Origin: an uncultured bacterium
GTDB taxonomy: Bacteria; UBP14; UBA6098
Length of the DNA: 64,000 bases
Assembly: GCA_964606695.1 (NCBI GenBank)
Contig: CAZSHG010000007.1
Span: 2,456-66,455 of the forward strand
Reading direction: 5' to 3'
Shown: positions 45,413 through 56,043 of the stretch, piece after piece
Layout of the letters: every line of letters begins with the position of its first letter
How positions within the stretch are numbered: the stretch's first letter is position 1
Translations under genes and position numbers: made by a program
The notes under the pieces: model-generated
The model's database searches: none
The model's input: the letters and a program-made list of their open reading frames with translations, nothing else
Told to the model about the DNA's origin: nothing

Positions 45413-46087
45413 ATGAAAAAAAGAATAACCTATTTAGTTTTATTTCTATTGAGCTTTTCGGTTGCTTTCGCGGTCGTAATAGACATCGTTCGAATTAGCG
45501 ATGTGCCGCTTATACTCGATATCAACGTCTATAATGACGGGGAACCGCCTGTCGAAATAACCGATTTCCATTTCAGCGTATCACCTCCTTGCGAGGTAGT
45601 GGCCGCGGAAGGCCCTCCAGGATGGACTCTACGATACGCATTGCCAAACAGTTTCGTCGAAATGGACGCTGGCGACGGCGCGGAGATTCCGCCGGGAGGT
45701 TCCGGGTCGTTCAGGGTTACGCTCGAAGGGCCCTGCGAAGACGCCAGTTATACCTTGTATTTAACCAGTCCCGAAGGTGTGATCCCTGGAAGCGAGCAGG
45801 AAGGTCCTCTGGGGCCTTTGGACGTTGGGACGGGAGTTAGACCGGAAAATATCGAGATCGAAATCTCGCCCAATCCATTCAACTCGTCGTGTGCTATTTC
45901 GGTTCCTGCGCGTGCCCGGATTGTTATTTACGACCTAACCGGACAGATTATAGATAAATTCGACTGCGGCTGTTCGAGAACTACATGGACATGGCGTCCA
46001 GATGAGAACCGGCCATCGGGAATATACCTTGTAAAGGCAACTCTGGGCGATTTAACTCTGACTAAACGCCTCGTTTATATGAAATAG
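45413..46087 (+). CDS. Secreted protein with a C-terminal FlgD-Ig-like / T9SS-type sorting domain
   Basis: Signal peptide. C-terminus SPNPFNSSCAISVP...IVIYDLTGQIIDKF...WTWRPDENRPSGIYLVKATLGDLTLTKRLVYMK. Confidence 0.6.
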   Translation: MKKRITYLVLFLLSFSVAFAVVIDIVRISDVPLILDINVYNDGEPPVEITDFHFSVSPPCEVVAAEGPPGWTLRYALPNSFVEMDAGDGAEIPPGGSGSFRVTLEGPCEDASYTLYLTSPEGVIPGSEQEGPLGPLDVGTGVRPENIEIEISPNPFNSSCAISVPARARIVIYDLTGQIIDKFDCGCSRTTWTWRPDENRPSGIYLVKATLGDLTLTKRLVYMK

Positions 46088-46631: not shown

Positions 46632-46964
46632 TCAAGGCGGAAGCTTCACACGACGTTTTTCGTAAAGCATGTCATCCTCGGGAGGGATTCTTTCTAAAAC
46701 GACGCGAAAGCCGCAAGCGCCTGCAACCGCGACAAAGGTCGAAAATCGAAGCGACTTAGTTCTCCGATTCATGAAATTGCTGATCGAAGATTGAGCCATT
46801 CCGGTTACACGCGCGATTGTCGCCTGATTGACACCCGCTGTGCCGTCCTTTATTATCTCGATAAGCTCCTCGTGAACCCGGTTTATCTCTGGTTCCCAGA
46901 ACACACGCATTTTGGCCCTGGTTTCTCTTGCCATGCGCCTTCTCTCCTTCCTGCGCGCCACCAT
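46632..46964 (-). CDS. Helix-turn-helix (XRE/Cro-like) DNA-binding protein
   Basis: VNQATIARVTGMAQSSISNFMN HTH core; basic N-terminus. Confidence 0.55.
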   Translation of the reverse strand: MVARRKERRRMARETRAKMRVFWEPEINRVHEELIEIIKDGTAGVNQATIARVTGMAQSSISNFMNRRTKSLRFSTFVAVAGACGFRVVLERIPPEDDMLYEKRRVKLPP

Positions 46965-47103: not shown

Positions 47104-47143
47104 TCACAAAAAAGCACCGCCTTCCGAGGGGAGAAGGCGGCGC
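47104..47143 (-). terminator. Rho-independent terminator closing the gdh operon
   Basis: Minus strand: gcgccgccttctcccctcggaaggcggtgc followed by ttttttgtg. Confidence 0.5.
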
Positions 47144-47197: not shown

Positions 47198-48466
47198 TTA
47201 AGGGAAAACACCTTTGCTTTTGTAAATCTTTTCCAAAATTGACAATGCCTTTATATAAGCGGCGTTTCTGTGCGTTGTCTCGTATTCTTCGGAGGCATCT
47301 TCGACGATTTTATATGCCGCCAGCATCTTCTTTTTTAGCATTGATTCCAGGTCGTCGGCCTCGAATTTCTCGCATCGTTTATTTTGAAGCCACTCGAAAT
47401 AGCTGAGGACAAGGGAACCTGAATTTGAAATGATATCTGGCATGATGTCGATGCCACGGTCTTCCAGGATGATGTCCGCCTCGGTATCGACCGGCGCGCT
47501 TGTGGCCTCCACGATGAGTTTCGTGTTGAGCGATTTTGCGTTCGACCCGCCAACCTGATGTTCCAACGCGGCGAAGATCATCATATCGACGCCTGTTTGC
47601 AGAAAATCGTCGTGCGAAATACGCTCCCCGCGAGGGTATCCGCTGATTCGCCCGAATTTCTTCTTGTAAAACAATAGTTCCGGGACGTCGATGCCGTCCT
47701 TGTCGCGGAAAGCTCCGCCGCTGTCCTCGATAGCGACTAACGAGCATCCGTTATCACTCAATATATTGGCTATATTCGATCCGATCTTGCCGAACCCCTG
47801 AAGTGAATATGTCATTCCCTTTAGTTCGAGGCCTTTGTTTTCGCACCATGCTTTGATTAAAAACATGTTGCTTTTCGCCTGCAATTCGTTGTAATTAGGC
47901 AGGCCTCCAAGCGTTTCGGGTTTGCCGGTAACTACGTGACGATAACAGTTAAGCTGGTCGGGAGAAACCTCGGTCAGGTAGGAATCGAGTATCCATGACA
48001 TGATTCGCGGATTGGAATTTATATCCGGTGTGATGACGTCGTATTCCGGGTCGATATTCGACCTGACGGCGTATGTGTATCTCCGAATGGTTCTTTCCAG
48101 ATCGACACCGGAGAATTCACCCGGCGATGCCGCAATACCGCCCATCGAACCGCCGAATGGTAAATCGAGCAAGGTGGCTTTCCACGTGTTCCATGACGCC
48201 AGGGCTTTCATCTGTGTGAGATTTACGCTGGGGTGAATCCGGAGGCCGCCTATAAACGGCCCCCGGATGTTATTATGTTGGACACGATAACCACTCAGAA
48301 TCTCCACGTCGCCACTTTCCATCTGCACCGGGAAATTAAATGTTATCTCATTCATAGACTTCCCAAGGATGCGAAGTATGTTAATATCCAGGCCGATATG
48401 GTCGGCGGCGCTGTGGAATTGCTCCACCATTGTTCCGTGGATATTCGATATGGTCAGCATGTCCAA
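47198..48466 (-). CDS. Glutamate dehydrogenase-family paralog lacking both conserved active-site lysines (GPFIGGLR and PFGGSMGG); likely non-catalytic or altered function
   Basis: Full-length Glu/Leu/Phe/Val-DH fold with an intact Rossmann GFGKIG motif and the C-terminal SYFEWLQN. The Lys89-equivalent is Ile and the Lys125-equivalent is Met. Confidence 0.8.
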   Translation of the reverse strand: MDMLTISNIHGTMVEQFHSAADHIGLDINILRILGKSMNEITFNFPVQMESGDVEILSGYRVQHNNIRGPFIGGLRIHPSVNLTQMKALASWNTWKATLLDLPFGGSMGGIAASPGEFSGVDLERTIRRYTYAVRSNIDPEYDVITPDINSNPRIMSWILDSYLTEVSPDQLNCYRHVVTGKPETLGGLPNYNELQAKSNMFLIKAWCENKGLELKGMTYSLQGFGKIGSNIANILSDNGCSLVAIEDSGGAFRDKDGIDVPELLFYKKKFGRISGYPRGERISHDDFLQTGVDMMIFAALEHQVGGSNAKSLNTKLIVEATSAPVDTEADIILEDRGIDIMPDIISNSGSLVLSYFEWLQNKRCEKFEADDLESMLKKKMLAAYKIVEDASEEYETTHRNAAYIKALSILEKIYKSKGVFP

Positions 48467-48508
48467 TCCTTTTTGTTCATCTTCGATAAAATTCGATATT
48501 GCGACTCA

Positions 48509-49801
48509 TCAGGGGAAAATTCCACGTTCGCGATATACCTTTTCGAGGCTCTTGATAGCTACAACGTAAGCCGCGGTTCGCCAATCGGTTTCGTGCTGAT
48601 CCGCGATTTCCTTCACGCGATGGTATCCGCCGATGATCTTCTTGTGGAGTTTCGTATCGACCTCGTTGAGATCCCAGTGCTCGCTTCGTTTGTTCTGTAG
48701 CCACTCGAAGTAACTCACGACGACTCCGCCTGCGTTGCAGAGGATATCGGGGATGACGTCGATTCCGCGTTCGAATAGAATCTGATCGCCCTCGGGATCG
48801 GTTGGGCCGTTAGCGCCTTCAGCAATCATTCTGACGTTCAGATCTTTCGCGGTTTCGCCGTTTATCTGGTTTTCCAGAGCCGCCGGAATGAAGATGTCGG
48901 CTTTGGTCTTCAAGAATGTGTCGTGGTCGATCTCTTTCGTTCCGGGGAAACCGGCAACTCCGCCTGTTTTTGCGACGTGGTATGTGAGAGCGTCGGCGTC
49001 GATGCCGTCCGCGCTGTAAATTGCGCCGGTAACGTCTTCGGCGGCGAGGAGTTTCGCGCCGTGTTCTTTCATCAGGCGAGCCGCCCACGAACCTACGTTA
49101 CCGAAACCCTGCACGAAGTATGTCGAACCGTTCAGGTCGAAGTTCTTATCCGAAGCCCACTGTTCGATTGTGAACATGACGCCCTGGCCGGTGGCCTTGT
49201 CGCGTCCCAGGCTTCCGCCACTCTCGATGGGCTTGCCGGTAACGACATGCGTGCACCTGTTGCGGTCCATCGGCGGCATCATCGACAGGTAGGTGTCGAG
49301 TATCCAGGCCATGATCTGCGGTGTGGTGTTGACGTCGGGAGCCGGAATGTCATATTCCGGGCCGATGTTATTGCCCAGCGCATAGGTGAACCTTCGCGTG
49401 ATTCGTTCCAGCTCTTTCTTACTATACTTGGCAGGATCCATCTGAATTCCGCCCTTGCCGCCGCCGAAGGGAATCCCCACGATTGCGGATTTCCAGGTCA
49501 TCCATGTGGCCAACGCGCGGACCTCGTTCAGATCGACGTCCGGGTGGAAACGCAGTCCGCCTTTGTAGGGGCCGAGGATATTATTGTGCTGAACTCGATA
49601 GCCGGTGAACATCTCGATTTTCCCGTTATCCATGCGGACGGGGAAATTGACGACGATCTCGTTAGTCGTGTTAGAGAGTATTCGCCGGATGTTCTCGTCC
49701 AGGCCGATTAAATCGGCGGCTTTGCTGAACTGCCGTTCGACGTTCTCGTAAACGTTCGATTTACGAACCTTTTTCTCGACAGCTTCTTTTACTGCTTTCA
49801 T
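48509..49801 (-). CDS. gdhA: Glutamate dehydrogenase (canonical)
   Basis: GPYKGGLRFHP, PFGGGKGG, GFGNVG and VVSYFEWLQN motifs; 430 aa. Confidence 0.85.
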   Translation of the reverse strand: MKAVKEAVEKKVRKSNVYENVERQFSKAADLIGLDENIRRILSNTTNEIVVNFPVRMDNGKIEMFTGYRVQHNNILGPYKGGLRFHPDVDLNEVRALATWMTWKSAIVGIPFGGGKGGIQMDPAKYSKKELERITRRFTYALGNNIGPEYDIPAPDVNTTPQIMAWILDTYLSMMPPMDRNRCTHVVTGKPIESGGSLGRDKATGQGVMFTIEQWASDKNFDLNGSTYFVQGFGNVGSWAARLMKEHGAKLLAAEDVTGAIYSADGIDADALTYHVAKTGGVAGFPGTKEIDHDTFLKTKADIFIPAALENQINGETAKDLNVRMIAEGANGPTDPEGDQILFERGIDVIPDILCNAGGVVVSYFEWLQNKRSEHWDLNEVDTKLHKKIIGGYHRVKEIADQHETDWRTAAYVVAIKSLEKVYRERGIFP

Positions 49802-49813
49802 TGTAGATTCCTC

Positions 49814-50164
49814 CTATCTGTATTCTTCACAATGCCATACGCCGCTTTCCGGTTTCGGGAAAGTGCATGTGTGGCGGTTTTCGCAATTTACGCATAGACC
49901 TTTGAATTTCTGATCCTCCACAGGTTCGGTGGCTTCGGCCTTCTCCGCCGGTTTGTGTGCCGAGACGGGTGTTAACCCGCAATCGAACTCCTCGCAGTAG
50001 AGGATGGGTTCTTCGGCGCTTTGAAGGAATATGCAGTCATCCGCGTGTATGCAGGTTGCGCATAATCCTTTCGCCTTGATTTCCTCGCGCGAACAAGACG
50101 GCTTTTCGGCGGTCTCGACGCGAGGTCTTTTCAGCGTCCTTTCTTTTGTTTCTACAGCACTCAT
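49814..50164 (-). CDS. Cys-rich small protein with two tandem KGLCxxC-x5-C-x11-14-CEE(F/Y) modules; unknown function
   Basis: KAKGLCATCIHADDCIF...YCEEFD and KFKGLCVNCENRHTCTF...HCEEYR. Strong TAGGAGGT RBS before the ATG at 50164; the ORF-track start at 50209 would leave no leader. Confidence 0.5.
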   Translation of the reverse strand: MSAVETKERTLKRPRVETAEKPSCSREEIKAKGLCATCIHADDCIFLQSAEEPILYCEEFDCGLTPVSAHKPAEKAEATEPVEDQKFKGLCVNCENRHTCTFPKPESGVWHCEEYR

Positions 50165-50221
50165 TTCAATACCTCCTAATTGGAATTGATTTTGTCGAAT
50201 TTCAAACAACCAATCCCTATT

Positions 50222-50241
50222 AAGGCTTGAAGCGTGCCAAT
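50222..50241 (-). promoter_or_regulatory. Candidate sigma-54 (-24/-12) promoter for the Cys-rich/gdh operon
   Basis: Minus strand reads TTGGCACGCTTCAAGCC (TGGCAC-N5-AAGC, obeying the GG-N10-GC rule); about 60 nt upstream of the 50164 ATG. Confidence 0.4.
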
Positions 50242-50457
50242 TGTGAAAAAGACGTTAAGACTTCATCTAATTATTCGAGGGAGATATCCTGCATCCTTTT
50301 GTATAATAAGGTGTTATAGGTGAAAGAAATATTTTTTTAGACAGTCGTTTTTTTCTGTTTTTCGATGCGAAAAACAGGTTGGTTTTTGGGGGGAATTTCC
50401 CCGCCGGGGAGTATTTCCCCGGCTCGGTATGGTTATATTAATGGGGTTTGGTGATAA

Positions 50458-51792
50458 TTATTGATTATCTTCTTCGACTTTATTACGAAGCGTCTTGCGG
50501 TCAATATCCAGAATCTTCGCGGCATGTGTTTTATTGCCGTCCACGCTGTCCAGAACCTGCCGTATATATTCCTTCTCCACTTCGATAAGAGGGCGCGTGA
50601 GATCACGGGCGGTATGCGCGGAATAACGCATCGGCGAGGGCAAATCCGGGACGTCGATAACCTTATCCTCGGTCATTACAACCAGTCTCTGCACAAGGTT
50701 TTCCAACTCGCGGACGTTGCCCGGCCAGTCGTAATCTTTTATAGCTTGCAATGCTCGATCTGTGAAACTTGGGACTGCGGTGCCCATTTCTTCGGCGTAA
50801 AGGTGCACGAAATAATCTTTCAACATAATGATGTCGTCACCGCGATCTCTCAGGGGAGGGACGTTAATCTCGATCACGTTTAACCTATAGTAAAGGTCTT
50901 CGCGAAATATTCCTTTGTTCACAAGCGAAAGTAAGTCCTTATTAGTTGCGGCAATCACTCGGACGTTTACCTTTGTCGGTTTACGCGACCCGACCATGGT
51001 TACTTCCTTTTCCTGCAGAACTCGAAGCAGTTTGACCTGCATGGATAAACTTGTTTCGCTTATTTCGTCGAGGAAAATCGAACCACCGTCTGCGGTCTGG
51101 AAAAAGCCCGCGCGAGTATCGCTTGCGCCCGTAAACGAGCCTTTCACATGCCCGAATAGCTCGCTTTCCAGAAGCTCCTGTGGAATTCCTCCGCAGTTGA
51201 CCGGCACGAAGGTCGCAGAAGCCCTGGGGCTGGAATAATGTATTGCTCTTGCAACGAGTTCCTTGCCCGTGCCGCTTTCACCGGTAATCAGGACGGTAGC
51301 GAGTGTTTTAGAAGCTTTGTTAATCGCCCGGTATATAGACTGCATAGCATCGGAGTTTCCGATGAATCCTTCCGGTGCTTCGACCGGTTCCATCATTGAA
51401 TCGCCGTTGCGCAATTTAATTCTGGAAAGTGCTTTTGTTACCGATTCCAGCAACTCTTCCCTGGTAAAGGGTTTGGAAATAAAATCCGTCGCGCCGGTTT
51501 GCATAGCTTCGACCGCGCCGTCAACCGTAGCAAATCCGGTAATCATAATCACCTCGAGGTCACGGTAGTTCTCGCGGATATGGCGAATCATATCCATCCC
51601 GTTTCCGCCCGGCATTTTTAAATCTGTAATCACCAAATCGAAGTGTTCTTTTTCGAGAAGGTTTACGGCATCATGAAGCATTGTTGTAGTAAATATTCTG
51701 TAGCCTTCGCCTTCAAGATTTCTGCGAATCATTTCCAGCGTATCTTCTGAATCGTCGAGGATTAGTATTGTTGACTGCTTATGTTTATCCAT
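50458..51792 (-). CDS. Sigma-54-dependent response regulator (receiver + AAA+ + Fis HTH; NtrC family)
   Basis: ILILDDSED receiver domain, GESGTGKELVARAIH Walker A, GAFTGA-like sigma-54 contact region, ESELFGH motif, C-terminal HTH. Confidence 0.85.
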   Translation of the reverse strand: MDKHKQSTILILDDSEDTLEMIRRNLEGEGYRIFTTTMLHDAVNLLEKEHFDLVITDLKMPGGNGMDMIRHIRENYRDLEVIMITGFATVDGAVEAMQTGATDFISKPFTREELLESVTKALSRIKLRNGDSMMEPVEAPEGFIGNSDAMQSIYRAINKASKTLATVLITGESGTGKELVARAIHYSSPRASATFVPVNCGGIPQELLESELFGHVKGSFTGASDTRAGFFQTADGGSIFLDEISETSLSMQVKLLRVLQEKEVTMVGSRKPTKVNVRVIAATNKDLLSLVNKGIFREDLYYRLNVIEINVPPLRDRGDDIIMLKDYFVHLYAEEMGTAVPSFTDRALQAIKDYDWPGNVRELENLVQRLVVMTEDKVIDVPDLPSPMRYSAHTARDLTRPLIEVEKEYIRQVLDSVDGNKTHAAKILDIDRKTLRNKVEEDNQ

Positions 51793-53548
51793 ATCCAACT
51801 TCTTTCTGATTAATTGGAAGCGAGACAACAAATTTCGATCCGACACCGGTCTTGCTTTCCACTTCGATCGTTCCATTCTGAGAAGACACAATCCCATGAA
51901 CTACAGAAAGACCCAAACCTGTGCCGTCGCCAACTTCCTTCGTTGTGAAGAAAGGTAAAAAGATCTTTTTACGAATGTCTTCAGGAATACCCTCGCCAGT
52001 ATCTTCGATCTCTATAATTACGGATTCGTCGCAAAGAATAGTCCGTATTGTTAATTTCCCTCCGTTTGGCATAGCCTGAATTGCGTTTACTATAAGATTG
52101 ACTATTACCTGATGTATCTGCGCCTGATCAGCATAAATTAGGGGTAAATCGGGCGCTAATTTTCTTACAAGTTCGATTCCTTCTTTCGAGCACCGCGATT
52201 CCAGGAAATACAAGCCGTCCGCGACGATTTTATTAATATCGATACTCGTTTTTTTTGTGGGCATCTGCCGTCCGAAAAAGAGCAGTTTGCGAATAACTTC
52301 TCGTGAATGAAGCGAGGCTTTTTCGATTTTTTGCAGGTCATCTGAAATTTCACCGGGGATTTCCTGATTGTTTAGCATTAACTGGACGAATCCAAGTATG
52401 TTCGCCAGCGGTTCGTTTAGTTCGTGTGCGACGCCAGAAGCTAATTGGCCAAGAGTAGCCAACCTGTCCGCGTGTCGAAGTTGTTCCTCCAGTTTCTTCC
52501 TTTCCTCGCGGGCTTCGCGGCGTTCAACTATATTCCCTATCTCGGCGACGATCATATCGAGTAAACGCCGTTCCTCGTCCAGGAAAGGCGATTCCTCGGT
52601 CTCGATCTTATCTTCGGAATAGAAAACTTCCACGCGCCCGCGTTTTTCTCCAAGGACCATAATATCGGCACGCAAAGACAGGTTGCTGGTGGTGAAATTA
52701 TCCGTAGTGAAATCCTTCCCGTCGAGTTCGATAATCGCCGACGTTATGTCGGGATATTGCCAGCCGGGAGGTATCAGTTCGACTATCCCATTCAAGATGT
52801 TATCGATTCCCAGGGATGGATCCTCCACGGTCTGGGATATTCCGTATAGGCATGTCAGTTCCTTGATTCGCTCTTTGCGTTCCGCCTGAGCTCGCTGGAT
52901 AATCAGGGCGATTCCCAGCGTCTCACCGGCTTCCTCAAACAGTGCTATTTCCTGTTCGGTGAAAAAGAATTTCGCCCGGCTCTTCATTATCAGCAGACCG
53001 ACATTTTCTTCGCCGATACGGATCGGCACAAGCGCTATCGACTCGAAATCCTTCTCGGAATCCAGATTATATCGAAAACCCTTATTTCGTTTTAGGTTGG
53101 GATTTGATATCTCCGGTGTCCAAAAACTCCCGCGATCGGTGAAATAGTTGAGTTCCGGGTTATATCTGCCGCTCATGACGTCGCCGCATAGCTTCTCGAA
53201 ATCGGATTCTCCCATTACAAAAGCCGATCCATTTTGTTCGTGGATTTTGACTATTGGTTTCGCCCGAAAACAATACGACGCCCCCTGTGCCCCCTCGATA
53301 GCGCATCTGCGGAGTTTTTCCCTGCTAATTACGCGTAACTCGATATAATCGCAAGCCGAGAACTCGGCGATGTTCTTCAGAAAAACTTTGAGGAATTCAA
53401 CACGAGGAGCTTCCCGAATAGCGAGCATAAGAATACGCCGCGACAACTCCCGGTAACCTTCCCCGAGCCGCCTTTCAATATCGTGTGTATCCAATGGCGC
53501 ATTTCCATTCATAGATATGGATTCTATCGATTTTATAACCAAATTCAA
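51785..53548 (-). CDS. Cytoplasmic sensor histidine kinase (GAF/PAS-like sensor domains + HisKA + HATPase_c)
   Basis: H-box [23 protein letters not shown] and G-boxes DTGEGIPE...GTGLGLSV; no TM segments; 4 nt from the regulator start. Confidence 0.8.
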
Positions 53549-53742: not shown

Positions 53743-56043
53743 ATGGGAACAAGAAAAAGGCATCTATTCATATTTTTATTGATTCTGACTGCGGTTTTCG
53801 CGGAGTTCGACACACTGCAGATAATCGGGCATATCCCCGGCGCGGCTTGCATGTCGGTCGAATATTCCAACGGTAGATTATACGCTGGCGCGGGAAGTTC
53901 GCTCTTCATTTACGATTGCCTCGCCCCAGCGGATATGGAACTGGCGGGTTACGTCAATTTCATTTCGCTGGTGACGAATATAGTCGTCCGGGACGATTCG
54001 ATGGTCTTCGTCGGCGCGAACCATGACGGCCTCTACGCGGTGGATGCCTCCGAACCGGATTTCCCTATAGTCGCGCAATATAAAATGATCGATCACAGCC
54101 ACTGGATAGGCGATCTGGAACTTTCCCCTCCCGACACGTTGTGGATGTCGGATTTTAACGGCCTTAAACAGATGCTATTCACCGGTGATACCTTCATCGT
54201 TTATGAGGAATATTTTGACGGGGATAAGATAGCTGGCGTGGGTTTCAAGGACACTTTGCTCGCGGTTTGCCGTCGCCACGATTGGGGCATTTTGGGCTAT
54301 GTCGATTTCTATAAAAGAATGGGGACCGAACTGACTTTCATCGCCAGTTTCGATTCGTCGCGTCTCTGGTATATTATGGACGCTGAATTCGCGGATAATC
54401 GCAATGATATTATATACGTCCTCGGCGGAAGCCCTAATCTCGGTGCTGATGGTGATTTTTACGCGCTCCATTACGACGGCGATTCTCTCTACGTTGCAGA
54501 CGGTCATAAGTTCAGCGGCATTCCCATGTTCGCGCAAACATATATAATGAACATGGACTCAAAGAACGATACGGTTTTCCTCGCCACTATGGCGGCATTA
54601 TACTGGTCGTCTCTTGATTCCACCTGGTCGGACTGCCCGGCCCTCGACGGTAATTTTCTTCCGGATTCCATGCCTATAATCGGGCATTTCGTGCCGGGGC
54701 TGTGGTTCTTTGACGTCGCCCTGCACGACGATTACCCCGCACTCGCCACTGGCTCGGAGTGGTTGGGCGTCTGGTGGACGAGCATAGCAGATTTCGACGA
54801 GAGACTCGACACAATCAGAACTTACCCCACCGGCGGATGGGGACAGCATTCGTATCTCTACGGCGGCGACACGTTATTCATCGCTATGGAGGGCTACGGT
54901 GTGGCTGTATTCGATGTCGGAGAGCCGTCGGTGCCGGAACGGGTGGGGAGAATACCGGGTTCCTTTGCCCACGATATGGCTTTCCTGGATTCGATAATAT
55001 GTGTTGCGAGAAGCGCTAAGTTCATATTCTTCAATCTTGCACCCTTCTGGCGTGGAGGCGAAATCGAAGTGTTAGACACCTTCGAGGTGCCGCTTGTTTT
55101 CGGGGAAACGCATATCTGTCATTCGCTGGCGTTGATGGAGACCAACGACGACACGTTCTTCGTCCTCGCCACCAGCGACGAGGGGATAAATCTCATAGAT
55201 CCGCGAGATATCCCGGGTGTCTATACCCACGCGCATTTCTTCGATAACACTGATCCTCTGGACGTTCGATGTTGTTACGATACATTATTTGTGATGATGA
55301 CGGATAGTTTCCACGTGGCCTGGTTCGACGGCGACACTATCGAATCTATTTACGATTGCGCGACGCCCGGCGAGGCACTCGGTTTTTATAAAGGCGGGGA
55401 TTTCGTCGCTATCGCATGTAAAGGCCCGGGTGTTTTCTGGTATAGATGGGAAGCGGATTCACTCGCTCTAATCGGCAATTGGAATCCATGGGGTTTATGC
55501 GCGGATGTGGAATATTTCGACAGCCTATTATATATCGCCTGCGCGGGCGAGGGGCTTTATATCCTCGATATCGAGGATTTCCCGGCGATAGATACTCTGG
55601 CATGGTTCCCCGGTTCGGGCGGCTGGGAATTCCTTCAATACGGCAGTCAGCATGTCTATTTCGGCCCGGACAGCACGATATTCCTATCCGATTATCACGC
55701 GGCGTGTTATATTCTTGAAAAATACGTGCGCGATCCTTACTACATCCGTGAAAATGGAGTGGATATACCCAAATCGCACACAATTTGGTCCTCCCCAAAT
55801 CCGTTTAATTCCAGCGTTCAGATCGAAGTGAAGAAAAAGGGAGTGAATTCCGCCCCCCGCGAAATTTCCATCTACGATGTTAAAGGCAGGTTGATCGATA
55901 AGATCGAACCCGATCCCATCGAGCGGGAAACAGTAGCTTCTTACACCTGGCGACCGGACGAAATTACCCCGTCGGGCCTTTACCTGGTTAAGGCCGAAGT
56001 ATCCGGCGAAATACTAACCGCCGGAATCGTATTCCTTAAATAG
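53743..56043 (+). CDS. Secreted LVIVD-repeat beta-propeller protein with a C-terminal FlgD-Ig-like / T9SS-type sorting domain
   Basis: Signal peptide; recurring DGLYAVDASEPDFP / GYGVAVFDVGEPSVP / EGINLIDPRDIPG / GEGLYILDIEDFP motifs; C-terminal SPNPFNSSVQIEV...ISIYDVKGRLID...YTWRPDEITPSGLYLVKAEV. Confidence 0.65.
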   Translation: MGTRKRHLFIFLLILTAVFAEFDTLQIIGHIPGAACMSVEYSNGRLYAGAGSSLFIYDCLAPADMELAGYVNFISLVTNIVVRDDSMVFVGANHDGLYAVDASEPDFPIVAQYKMIDHSHWIGDLELSPPDTLWMSDFNGLKQMLFTGDTFIVYEEYFDGDKIAGVGFKDTLLAVCRRHDWGILGYVDFYKRMGTELTFIASFDSSRLWYIMDAEFADNRNDIIYVLGGSPNLGADGDFYALHYDGDSLYVADGHKFSGIPMFAQTYIMNMDSKNDTVFLATMAALYWSSLDSTWSDCPALDGNFLPDSMPIIGHFVPGLWFFDVALHDDYPALATGSEWLGVWWTSIADFDERLDTIRTYPTGGWGQHSYLYGGDTLFIAMEGYGVAVFDVGEPSVPERVGRIPGSFAHDMAFLDSIICVARSAKFIFFNLAPFWRGGEIEVLDTFEVPLVFGETHICHSLALMETNDDTFFVLATSDEGINLIDPRDIPGVYTHAHFFDNTDPLDVRCCYDTLFVMMTDSFHVAWFDGDTIESIYDCATPGEALGFYKGGDFVAIACKGPGVFWYRWEADSLALIGNWNPWGLCADVEYFDSLLYIACAGEGLYILDIEDFPAIDTLAWFPGSGGWEFLQYGSQHVYFGPDSTIFLSDYHAACYILEKYVRDPYYIRENGVDIPKSHTIWSSPNPFNSSVQIEVKKKGVNSAPREISIYDVKGRLIDKIEPDPIERETVASYTWRPDEITPSGLYLVKAEVSGEILTAGIVFLK

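Follow-up and report, generated by a model that had tools for sequence, protein, structure and literature searches.

Why should an operon that already encodes a complete glutamate dehydrogenase (GDH) carry, directly behind it, a second full-length copy from which both active-site lysines have gone? The question is raised by a 64,000-nucleotide stretch of DNA (hereafter the window, whose numbering is used throughout) from contig CAZSHG010000007.1 of assembly GCA_964606695.1, an uncultured bacterium of the lineage UBP14. GDH is an enzyme of the branch point between carbon and nitrogen metabolism, and how it is controlled allosterically is a classic question. The second copy has lost the two lysines together with several contacts to substrate and nicotinamide while keeping the GDH fold and the oligomerisation domain, and it has very probably lost catalysis. 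The reading proposed here, to which a probability of roughly 0.55 is attached, is that it would serve as the regulatory subunit of a mixed GDH hexamer, by analogy with GdhA of Thermus thermophilus.

A canonical enzyme and its lysine-less paralog

The two genes lie in tandem:
48509..49801, minus strand: canonical glutamate dehydrogenase, 430 amino acids, matching PF02812 and PF00208, with its catalytic and binding residues complete
47198..48460, minus strand: lysine-less GDH paralog (pseudo-GDH), 420 amino acids, start ATG at 48460, with Ile and Met at the equivalents of K89 and K125

A first-pass annotation of the window, made from the sequence alone, had described two tandem genes of the Glu/Leu/Phe/Val (ELFV) dehydrogenase family on the minus strand, and both open reading frames (ORFs) were found as placed. 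Scores against PF02812 and PF00208 were 194.2 and 236.2 bits for the upstream copy and 140.3 and 152.9 bits for the downstream copy (cut-offs of approximately 25 bits), which puts the paralog within the ELFV superfamily. The tandem arrangement stood, while the start of the downstream gene had to be moved from 48466 to the ATG at 48460, which equals the deposited gene call and is preceded by AGGA at a distance of 6 nt; with this start, 48 nt and not 42 nt separate the two genes. The two proteins share 47% identity across 416 residues without a gap. No third GDH gene was found elsewhere in the 64-kb window.

The upstream protein possesses all of the canonical motifs previously ascribed to it (GPYKGGLRFHP, PFGGGKGG, GFGNVG and SYFEWLQN) and every residue that was checked (K80, K104, K116, D156, S197, R200, T204, N331 and S363). 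Its best match in the PDB is the GDH of Thermotoga maritima, at 415 bits. From these residues it is predicted to be a catalytically competent GDH.

In the paralog the corresponding motifs read GPFIGGLRIHP, PFGGSMGG, GFGKIG and SYFEWLQN. The assignment of its Ile and Met to the equivalents of Lys89 and Lys125 held in two alignments. Ile72 and Met108 stand opposite Lys in the T. maritima enzyme, and residues 40-395 align to residues 57-420 of the Clostridium symbiosum chain 1bgv_A offset by +17, provided that no gap precedes residue 148. By this offset I72, K96, M108 and D148 (422-residue numbering) correspond to C. symbiosum K89, K113, K125 and D165 in the numbering established for GDHs. A competent GDH would have the catalytic Lys of GGxKGG (K125) and the γ-carboxylate-binding Lys of GPxKGG (K89); the paralog has neither. 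Further residues invariant in canonical enzymes are also gone (S197L, G199N, R200Y, T204Q, G205A, G207S and N331S, canonical numbering), the loop GGSxGRxxATGxG is replaced by GGLPNYNELQAKS and the Asn of EGANGP is Ser. The equivalents of K113, D165 and S380 (K96, D148 and S355) are retained, as is GxGxxG.

The Ile codon (ATA, 48253..48251) and the Met codon (ATG, 48145..48143) each lie one substitution from a Lys codon, AAA or AAG, which speaks for a sequencing or assembly error or a decaying pseudogene. Sequencing error, which the first-pass annotation had asked to be checked at the codon level, is excluded because both codons are identical in L001, a contig of an independent Logan metagenome assembly, and because the same Ile/Met pair recurs in relatives 76% identical (locus L085) and 53% identical (protein P0003); it is also present in protein P0002. 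The reading frame is intact and the ratio of non-synonymous to synonymous substitution rates (dN/dS), calculated against L001, is 0.077, compared with 0.042 for the canonical gdh. The paralog is under strong purifying selection, and the chance that its replacements reflect error or decay is negligible.

An AlphaFold2 model of the paralog (predicted local distance difference test score, pLDDT, 83; predicted template modelling score 0.85) gave Foldseek template modelling scores of 0.85-0.90 to solved GDHs, and the modelled fold is that of a normal GDH. With GFGKIG and SYFEWLQN in place, the model agrees with the earlier description of a protein that keeps the fold, the Rossmann motif and the C-terminal region. 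Identity to the partner is 0.52 in the oligomerisation domain (domain I) and 0.42 in the NAD domain, a ratio of 1.24 against 1.07 ± 0.08 among canonical pairs.

Loss of the lysines among relatives

Residues were compared across an alignment of 120 canonical and 26 distinct lysine-less relatives. Lys occupies both positions in 120 of 120 canonical proteins and each of them in just 2 of 26 lysine-less ones; of all columns with 95% conservation or more among canonical GDHs, no others are lost as completely. The position of K89 is taken by E, I, S, Q, T, Y, L or K and that of K125 by S, M, Y, A, N, R, Q or K, in the combinations IM, IK, IR, ES, QN, EY, SY, TS, SA, YA, LQ, KM and KS. Other pocket positions (A154, N158, T204, N331 and V360) are partly lost. 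Of the remaining active-site residues (the K113, D165 and S380 equivalents, the GGSxGR loop and the Asn of EGANGP) the other lysine-less relatives keep most. The window lineage is the most eroded of all, with GGLPNYNELQAKS in place of GGSLGRDKATGQG, EATSAP in place of EGANGP and Phe at P306.

These residues bear on whether the paralog could still be an enzyme, acting on another substrate or by a chemistry that does not use the two lysines, an alternative that had been offered beside a non-catalytic role. The ELFV fold accommodates several amino-acid dehydrogenase specificities, and the equivalents of K113, D165 and S380 are retained across the lysine-less group together with the Rossmann motif. 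A new catalysis would not be expected to leave eight different residues, from acidic to hydrophobic to aromatic, at each former lysine position. Such variability points to relaxed constraint at both sites and not to a new catalytic residue, and the window lineage has in addition lost the contacts altered by R200Y, T204Q and N331S as well as the GGSxGR loop. A surviving enzyme of this kind is thus improbable, and the view of the downstream copy as a non-catalytic paralog is borne out by the residue counts and by the selection acting on the gene.

A database search with the paralog returned three close clusters (92, 82 and 53% identity), all remaining matches being at or below 48%. One or both lysines were missing in 15 of the best 120 matches, and in 15 of the best 150 representatives at 50% identity. 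The first-pass annotation had proposed that recurrence beside canonical gdh be looked for, and in a scan of GTDB species representatives a lysine-less copy was found directly downstream of a canonical gdh in 11 of 80 loci. The metagenome-assembled genomes (MAGs) that carry tandem loci are labelled Zixibacteria, WOR-3, Stahlbacteria, Planctomycetota, Ignavibacteria and Terriglobales, and the gap between the two genes lies between -4 and 57 nt in most of them.

Pairs of two GDH types, tandem or nearby, that keep all of their lysines were also observed in MAGs of Thermotogae, Bipolaricaulota and Chloroflexota (L022, L037, L043, L056, L066, L068 and L070). Tandem gdh genes alone are therefore no sign of a dead subunit. 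The tandem pairs of L022, L037, L056, L066, L068 and L070 were considered as Thermus-type systems and rejected, both copies having both lysines. The upstream GDH of L070, tried as a source of GdhA, proved to be a canonical enzyme of the Pyrococcus type (571 bits to 1bvu).

The five-gene unit and its predicted control

The two GDH genes close a unit of five, in the order GAF histidine kinase, sigma-54 response regulator, Cys-rich protein, GDH and dead GDH. Its remaining features are:
51785..53548, minus strand: sensor histidine kinase with GAF, HisKA and HATPase_c domains (Pfam matches), the first gene of the cassette; its TTG start is uncertain
50458..51792, minus strand: sigma-54-dependent response regulator, 444 amino acids, with Response_reg, Sigma54_activat and HTH_8 domains (Pfam and NCBIfam matches), start ATG at 51792
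50224..50239, minus strand: sigma-54-type -24/-12 element TGGCACGCTTCAAGCC, with GG at 50238-50237 and GC at 50226-50225
49814..50164, minus strand: Cys-rich protein, 116 amino acids, an unannotated family without a Pfam or NCBIfam entry
47104..47143, minus strand: intrinsic terminator at the end of the operon, with a 12-bp stem, a 6-nt loop and a TTTTTTGTGA tail

The response regulator gene overlaps the stop of the kinase gene by 8 nt. The Cys-rich ORF starts at 50164, preceded by AGGAGG, and stops 12 nt before the gdh ATG, overlapping the gdh ribosome-binding site. Since the gaps are short and only a single promoter element and a single terminator are present, the Cys-rich ORF and the two GDH genes are considered to form one operon. 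The clean terminator reported previously was recovered as a hairpin at 47143..47114, with 8 G-C pairs in its stem, followed by the T-run TTTTTTGTGA.

The sigma-54-type promoter proposed earlier was upheld in most respects. The element TGGCACGCTTCAAGCC lies approximately 60 nt upstream of the Cys-rich ORF start and provides GG-N10-GC at 50238..50225; the block is conserved in L001 and L085 inside an otherwise diverged spacer, and the gene of a sigma-54 activator is adjacent. The -24 half is perfect. The -12 half does not bear out the earlier claim in full, as it reads the off-consensus AAGC where TTGC is expected, giving 9 of 12 positions against the consensus TGGCAC/TTGC. Elements of the type TGGCAC-N5-TTGC with at least 10 of 12 matches stand upstream of the small ORF in 19 of 29 entries scanned, the window being among the 29; the background rate is 127 such matches per 2.35 Mb. 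The response regulator, of the same 444-residue length as its L001 homolog, carries GSFTGA at the GAFTGA loop and the domains Sigma54_activat, AAA_lid and HTH_8. A sigma-70 promoter scan yielded nothing above shuffled expectation. The element, its recurrence and the adjacent activator gene support the prediction that the gdh operon is controlled by sigma-54.

Between the regulator stop and the -24/-12 element two adjacent dyads were observed at 50390..50423 (minus strand), GCCGGGG-AAATACT-CCCCGGC and GGGG-AAATT-CCCC, and both L001 and L085 preserve part of them. The response regulator might use them as enhancer sites; alternatively, they could form a hairpin of the terminator type for the regulator gene.

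Sigma-54 control of a gdh is not without parallel. The rocG gene of Bacillus subtilis is sigma-54-dependent via RocR/SigL. Geobacter sulfurreducens GSU1305 is a further case, a gdh under a -24/-12 promoter and an enhancer-binding protein, as is proposed for the window (PMC2725144). The window differs from both in its activator, a response regulator whose partner is a GAF histidine kinase, and in a transcript that would open with the Cys-rich ORF and close with the dead paralog.

The complete cassette of GAF kinase, sigma-54 regulator, ORF of approximately 115 residues, GDH and lysine-less GDH was also found in L001, in L002 (labelled Zixibacteria) and L004, which are NCBI MAG contigs, and in the JGI/ENA metagenome contigs L003, L085 and L086. 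In L001-L004, L085-L087 and L089 the small ORF and gdh follow the same pair of kinase and regulator genes. The closest long-contig relative is L085, with a canonical GDH 91% identical. There (L085:728-4398), as in L086, the region upstream of the kinase holds two divergently oriented genes for amino-acid permeases with PTS_EIIA_2 domains, which hints that the cassette serves amino-acid (glutamate) catabolism. In loci of the Zixibacteria type a third GDH, a class-I enzyme of approximately 450 residues that is 33-34% identical and has both lysines, adjoins the kinase gene (L002:3294-4646, L003:2729-4078 and L004:2904-4256; also L014 and L027). No such class-I enzyme is encoded within the 64-kb window.

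The small ORF encodes two repeats of the form GLC-x2-C-x5-C-x12-13-CEE[FY], whose Cys residues are invariant or nearly so among 111 homologs. Pfam and NCBIfam searches assigned it to no family, and its homologs fall into 121 clusters, every one of them unnamed or 'hypothetical'. It has a dN/dS of 0.128 (against L001). The AlphaFold2 model was poor (pLDDT 66) and gave no structural match in Foldseek, and a few members of the family show faint, sub-threshold matches to WhiB or RseC. The C-x2-C-x5-C spacing resembles that of [4Fe-4S] ligation in WhiB-like and EndoIII-type proteins, a resemblance to be used as a lead only. It is predicted that the protein probably binds metal or an Fe-S cluster.

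Of 76 genome loci that could be scored, 35 have the Cys-rich ORF immediately upstream of a canonical gdh. The ORF was present in all 10 scorable loci with a lysine-less paralog, compared with 25 of 66 without one (Fisher p = 1.9e-4). Two loci show the family in other company. At L088:6001-12417 a member stands before genes for NuoE-like, NuoF/GltD-like, ferredoxin and Glu_synthase proteins. In an AT-rich MAG (L087:6001-8743) the Cys-rich ORF is followed by two ORFs of 415 and 399 residues, approximately 23-29% identical to GDH and without nearly all of its active-site residues, one having a weak ELFV_dehydrog_N match and the other none; two class-I GDH genes adjoin them. These ORFs may be far more degenerate GDH-derived pseudoenzymes.

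The cassette is flanked by genes for secreted proteins whose C-terminal tails resemble Por/type IX secretion system sorting domains (45413..46087 and 53743..56043, both plus strand). The first has a sub-threshold Por_Secre_tail match. The second, of 766 residues, has the tail FNSS...GLYLVKA...K, read by eye, and occupies the flank where L085 has its permeases. Such tails, like the taxonomic labels of the related MAGs, would point to an uncultured bacterium of the FCB group. Just downstream of the terminator a 110-residue ORF (46632..46964, minus strand) with a weak, sub-threshold HTH_31 match was not seen in the related loci inspected.

A proposed mixed hexamer and its precedents

Three elements of the system are absent from the first-pass annotation: the Thermus GdhA/GdhB precedent, the conserved Cys-rich family, and the kinase and regulator as members of the unit. 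With these included, the cytoplasmic GAF histidine kinase and the sigma-54 response regulator would activate the -24/-12 promoter, which would drive a three-gene operon of Cys-rich protein, competent GDH and dead paralog. The dead paralog would then join the catalytic subunit in a mixed hexamer, whose activity or allosteric response it would tune, as GdhA does for GdhB in T. thermophilus.

Regulation by a GDH-fold protein need not involve a shared hexamer. The paralog might form its own oligomer and act as a ligand-sensing regulator of another protein, such as glutamate synthase or a transcription factor, in the manner of the B. subtilis GDHs that bind GltAB/GltC. GDH-fold proteins can regulate through protein-protein contact, and the solved structures matched here include the 'counter-enzyme complex' of GudB with glutamate synthase (7mfm). 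The Cys-rich partner family precedes the Glu_synthase-containing operon in L088, and nucleotide binding may survive in the paralog, since GxGxxG and the acidic residue after beta-2 are kept. Against a separate oligomer stand the tight spacing of the tandem genes and the adjacency of paralog and canonical gdh in 15 distinct loci (the window, L001-L004, L085 and nine GTDB loci). Moreover, Thermus GdhA, the one inactive GDH paralog characterised in the literature searched, works within a mixed hexamer (PMC9570180). An independent oligomer is consequently held to be unlikely, and regulation within a mixed hexamer is preferred.

A more elaborate proposal extends the mixed live/dead hexamer to all three products of the operon, as a regulated holoenzyme of a kind so far undescribed. 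The hexamer would be controlled or decorated by the Cys-rich protein, which would bind Fe-S or zinc and thereby couple glutamate catabolism to redox or metal status, and the dead subunit would be a docking or effector-sensing platform. This extension is speculative and, taken as a whole, rather unlikely. If it were true, the Cys-rich family would regulate the glutamate node, so far unnoticed, in many uncultured phyla.

Several observations weigh against a regulatory subunit of the Thermus kind, or against a part for the Cys-rich protein in it. The Cys-rich protein also precedes gdh genes that lack a dead paralog, as in the distant member L089, where gdh stands alone, and in L088 it precedes a glutamate-synthase-like operon with no gdh. 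What it does is therefore not bound up with the paralog, and the family may be tied to the glutamate node in general. The paralogs show no specific affinity to Thermus GdhA, GdhB-type chains always scoring higher: the window paralog scored 213 bits against GdhA (3aoe_E) and 256 bits against GdhB, and for two other lysine-less proteins and the canonical copy GdhB scored 356-384 bits with GdhA below the cut-off. It follows that the paralogs are not orthologs of GdhA and that the analogy is functional. The Thermus gene order, presumably gdhA before gdhB, is the reverse of that in the window. The residues of the Thermus Leu site (R129, D161 and a C-terminal F-P) could be mapped only tentatively and are also conserved in ordinary GDHs. 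The mixed hexamer is inferred, as are its regulatory effect, an effector and a physical role for the Cys-rich protein.

The phylogeny of the lysine-less proteins adds a further caution. Nearly all of them fell in one clade of an outgroup-rooted neighbour-joining tree, whereas a midpoint-rooted tree built without the two Lys columns split them into at least five groups, so that a single clean clade did not survive this treatment. Several resemble the canonical GDH encoded beside them no less than they resemble another lysine-less protein; that of L069 shares 71% identity with its partner and 64% with the closest lysine-less protein. Single origin, repeated origin or gene conversion within the tandem may each account for this history.

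The system bears on both annotation and regulation. When the metabolism of these phyla is reconstructed, an ELFV dehydrogenase gene that lacks K89 or K125 and adjoins a canonical gdh should be left out of the count of active GDHs. The Cys-rich family is conserved and unannotated, with a genetic link to gdh as well as to a dedicated sigma-54 two-component system. With the two GDH-fold proteins it provides a three-protein system open to testing how pseudoenzymes become regulators.

Pseudoenzymes that regulate are known from other enzyme families. ADLP of T. thermophilus, an alanine-dehydrogenase-like protein without the catalytic Lys, regulates a CoA transferase, and the prozyme of trypanosome AdoMetDC is a regulator derived from a paralogous enzyme. 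The window paralog is like them in that an enzyme has been duplicated, its catalytic Lys lost, its fold and possibly its ligand binding kept, and the product would be put to regulatory use (bioRxiv 10.1101/2025.10.31.685773; PMC5201418). Folds and targets differ: ADLP regulates an unrelated enzyme, and the target in the window is presumed to be the paralogous GDH encoded upstream.

In the literature searched, Thermus alone was found to have a bacterial GDH with a dead paralog as regulatory subunit. The T. thermophilus enzyme is a heterohexamer in which four GdhA subunits, inactive and regulatory, accompany two catalytic GdhB subunits; it is activated by leucine and, together with an inactive APRT homolog, by AMP (PMC9570180; bioRxiv 10.1101/2025.10.31.685773). 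The structure of GdhA/GdhB is PDB 3AOE (Tomita et al. 2010, 2011, 2019, as cited in PMC9570180). The residues of GdhA (3aoe_E) were probed by the change in score when single-residue mutants of the paralog were used as queries against PDB chains. The I72K query gained 3.5-3.6 bits for T. maritima GDH, GdhB and GdhA alike, while M108K gained 2.6-2.7 bits for T. maritima GDH and GdhB and changed GdhA by -0.1 bit. GdhA, raised by I72K and unmoved by M108K, thus keeps the K89 equivalent and is without that of K125, where substitution scores suggest that it probably has Ala or Thr. Protein P0123, a 419-residue 'K/A' candidate for GdhA, was rejected as not being GdhA.

The Thermus and window systems share a full-length GDH-fold paralog that is not expected to be catalytic, has no Lys at the K125 equivalent and is encoded beside a catalytic gdh, and in each a third protein, not itself a GDH, is a partner. 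That partner is the Cys-rich protein of 116 residues in the window and the APRT homolog in Thermus. GdhA keeps its K89 equivalent, whereas in the window paralog neither lysine remains and the GGSxGR loop and further contacts are gone as well, and expression in the window, unlike in Thermus, would be under a dedicated sigma-54 two-component system. The lysine-less paralogs, judged by their scores, probably arose independently of GdhA, so that the solution of a dead paralog would have been reached separately, recurring across uncultured lineages and here with both lysines gone. The window system differs from that of Thermus in origin, in the extent of active-site loss, in its third partner and in its transcriptional control.

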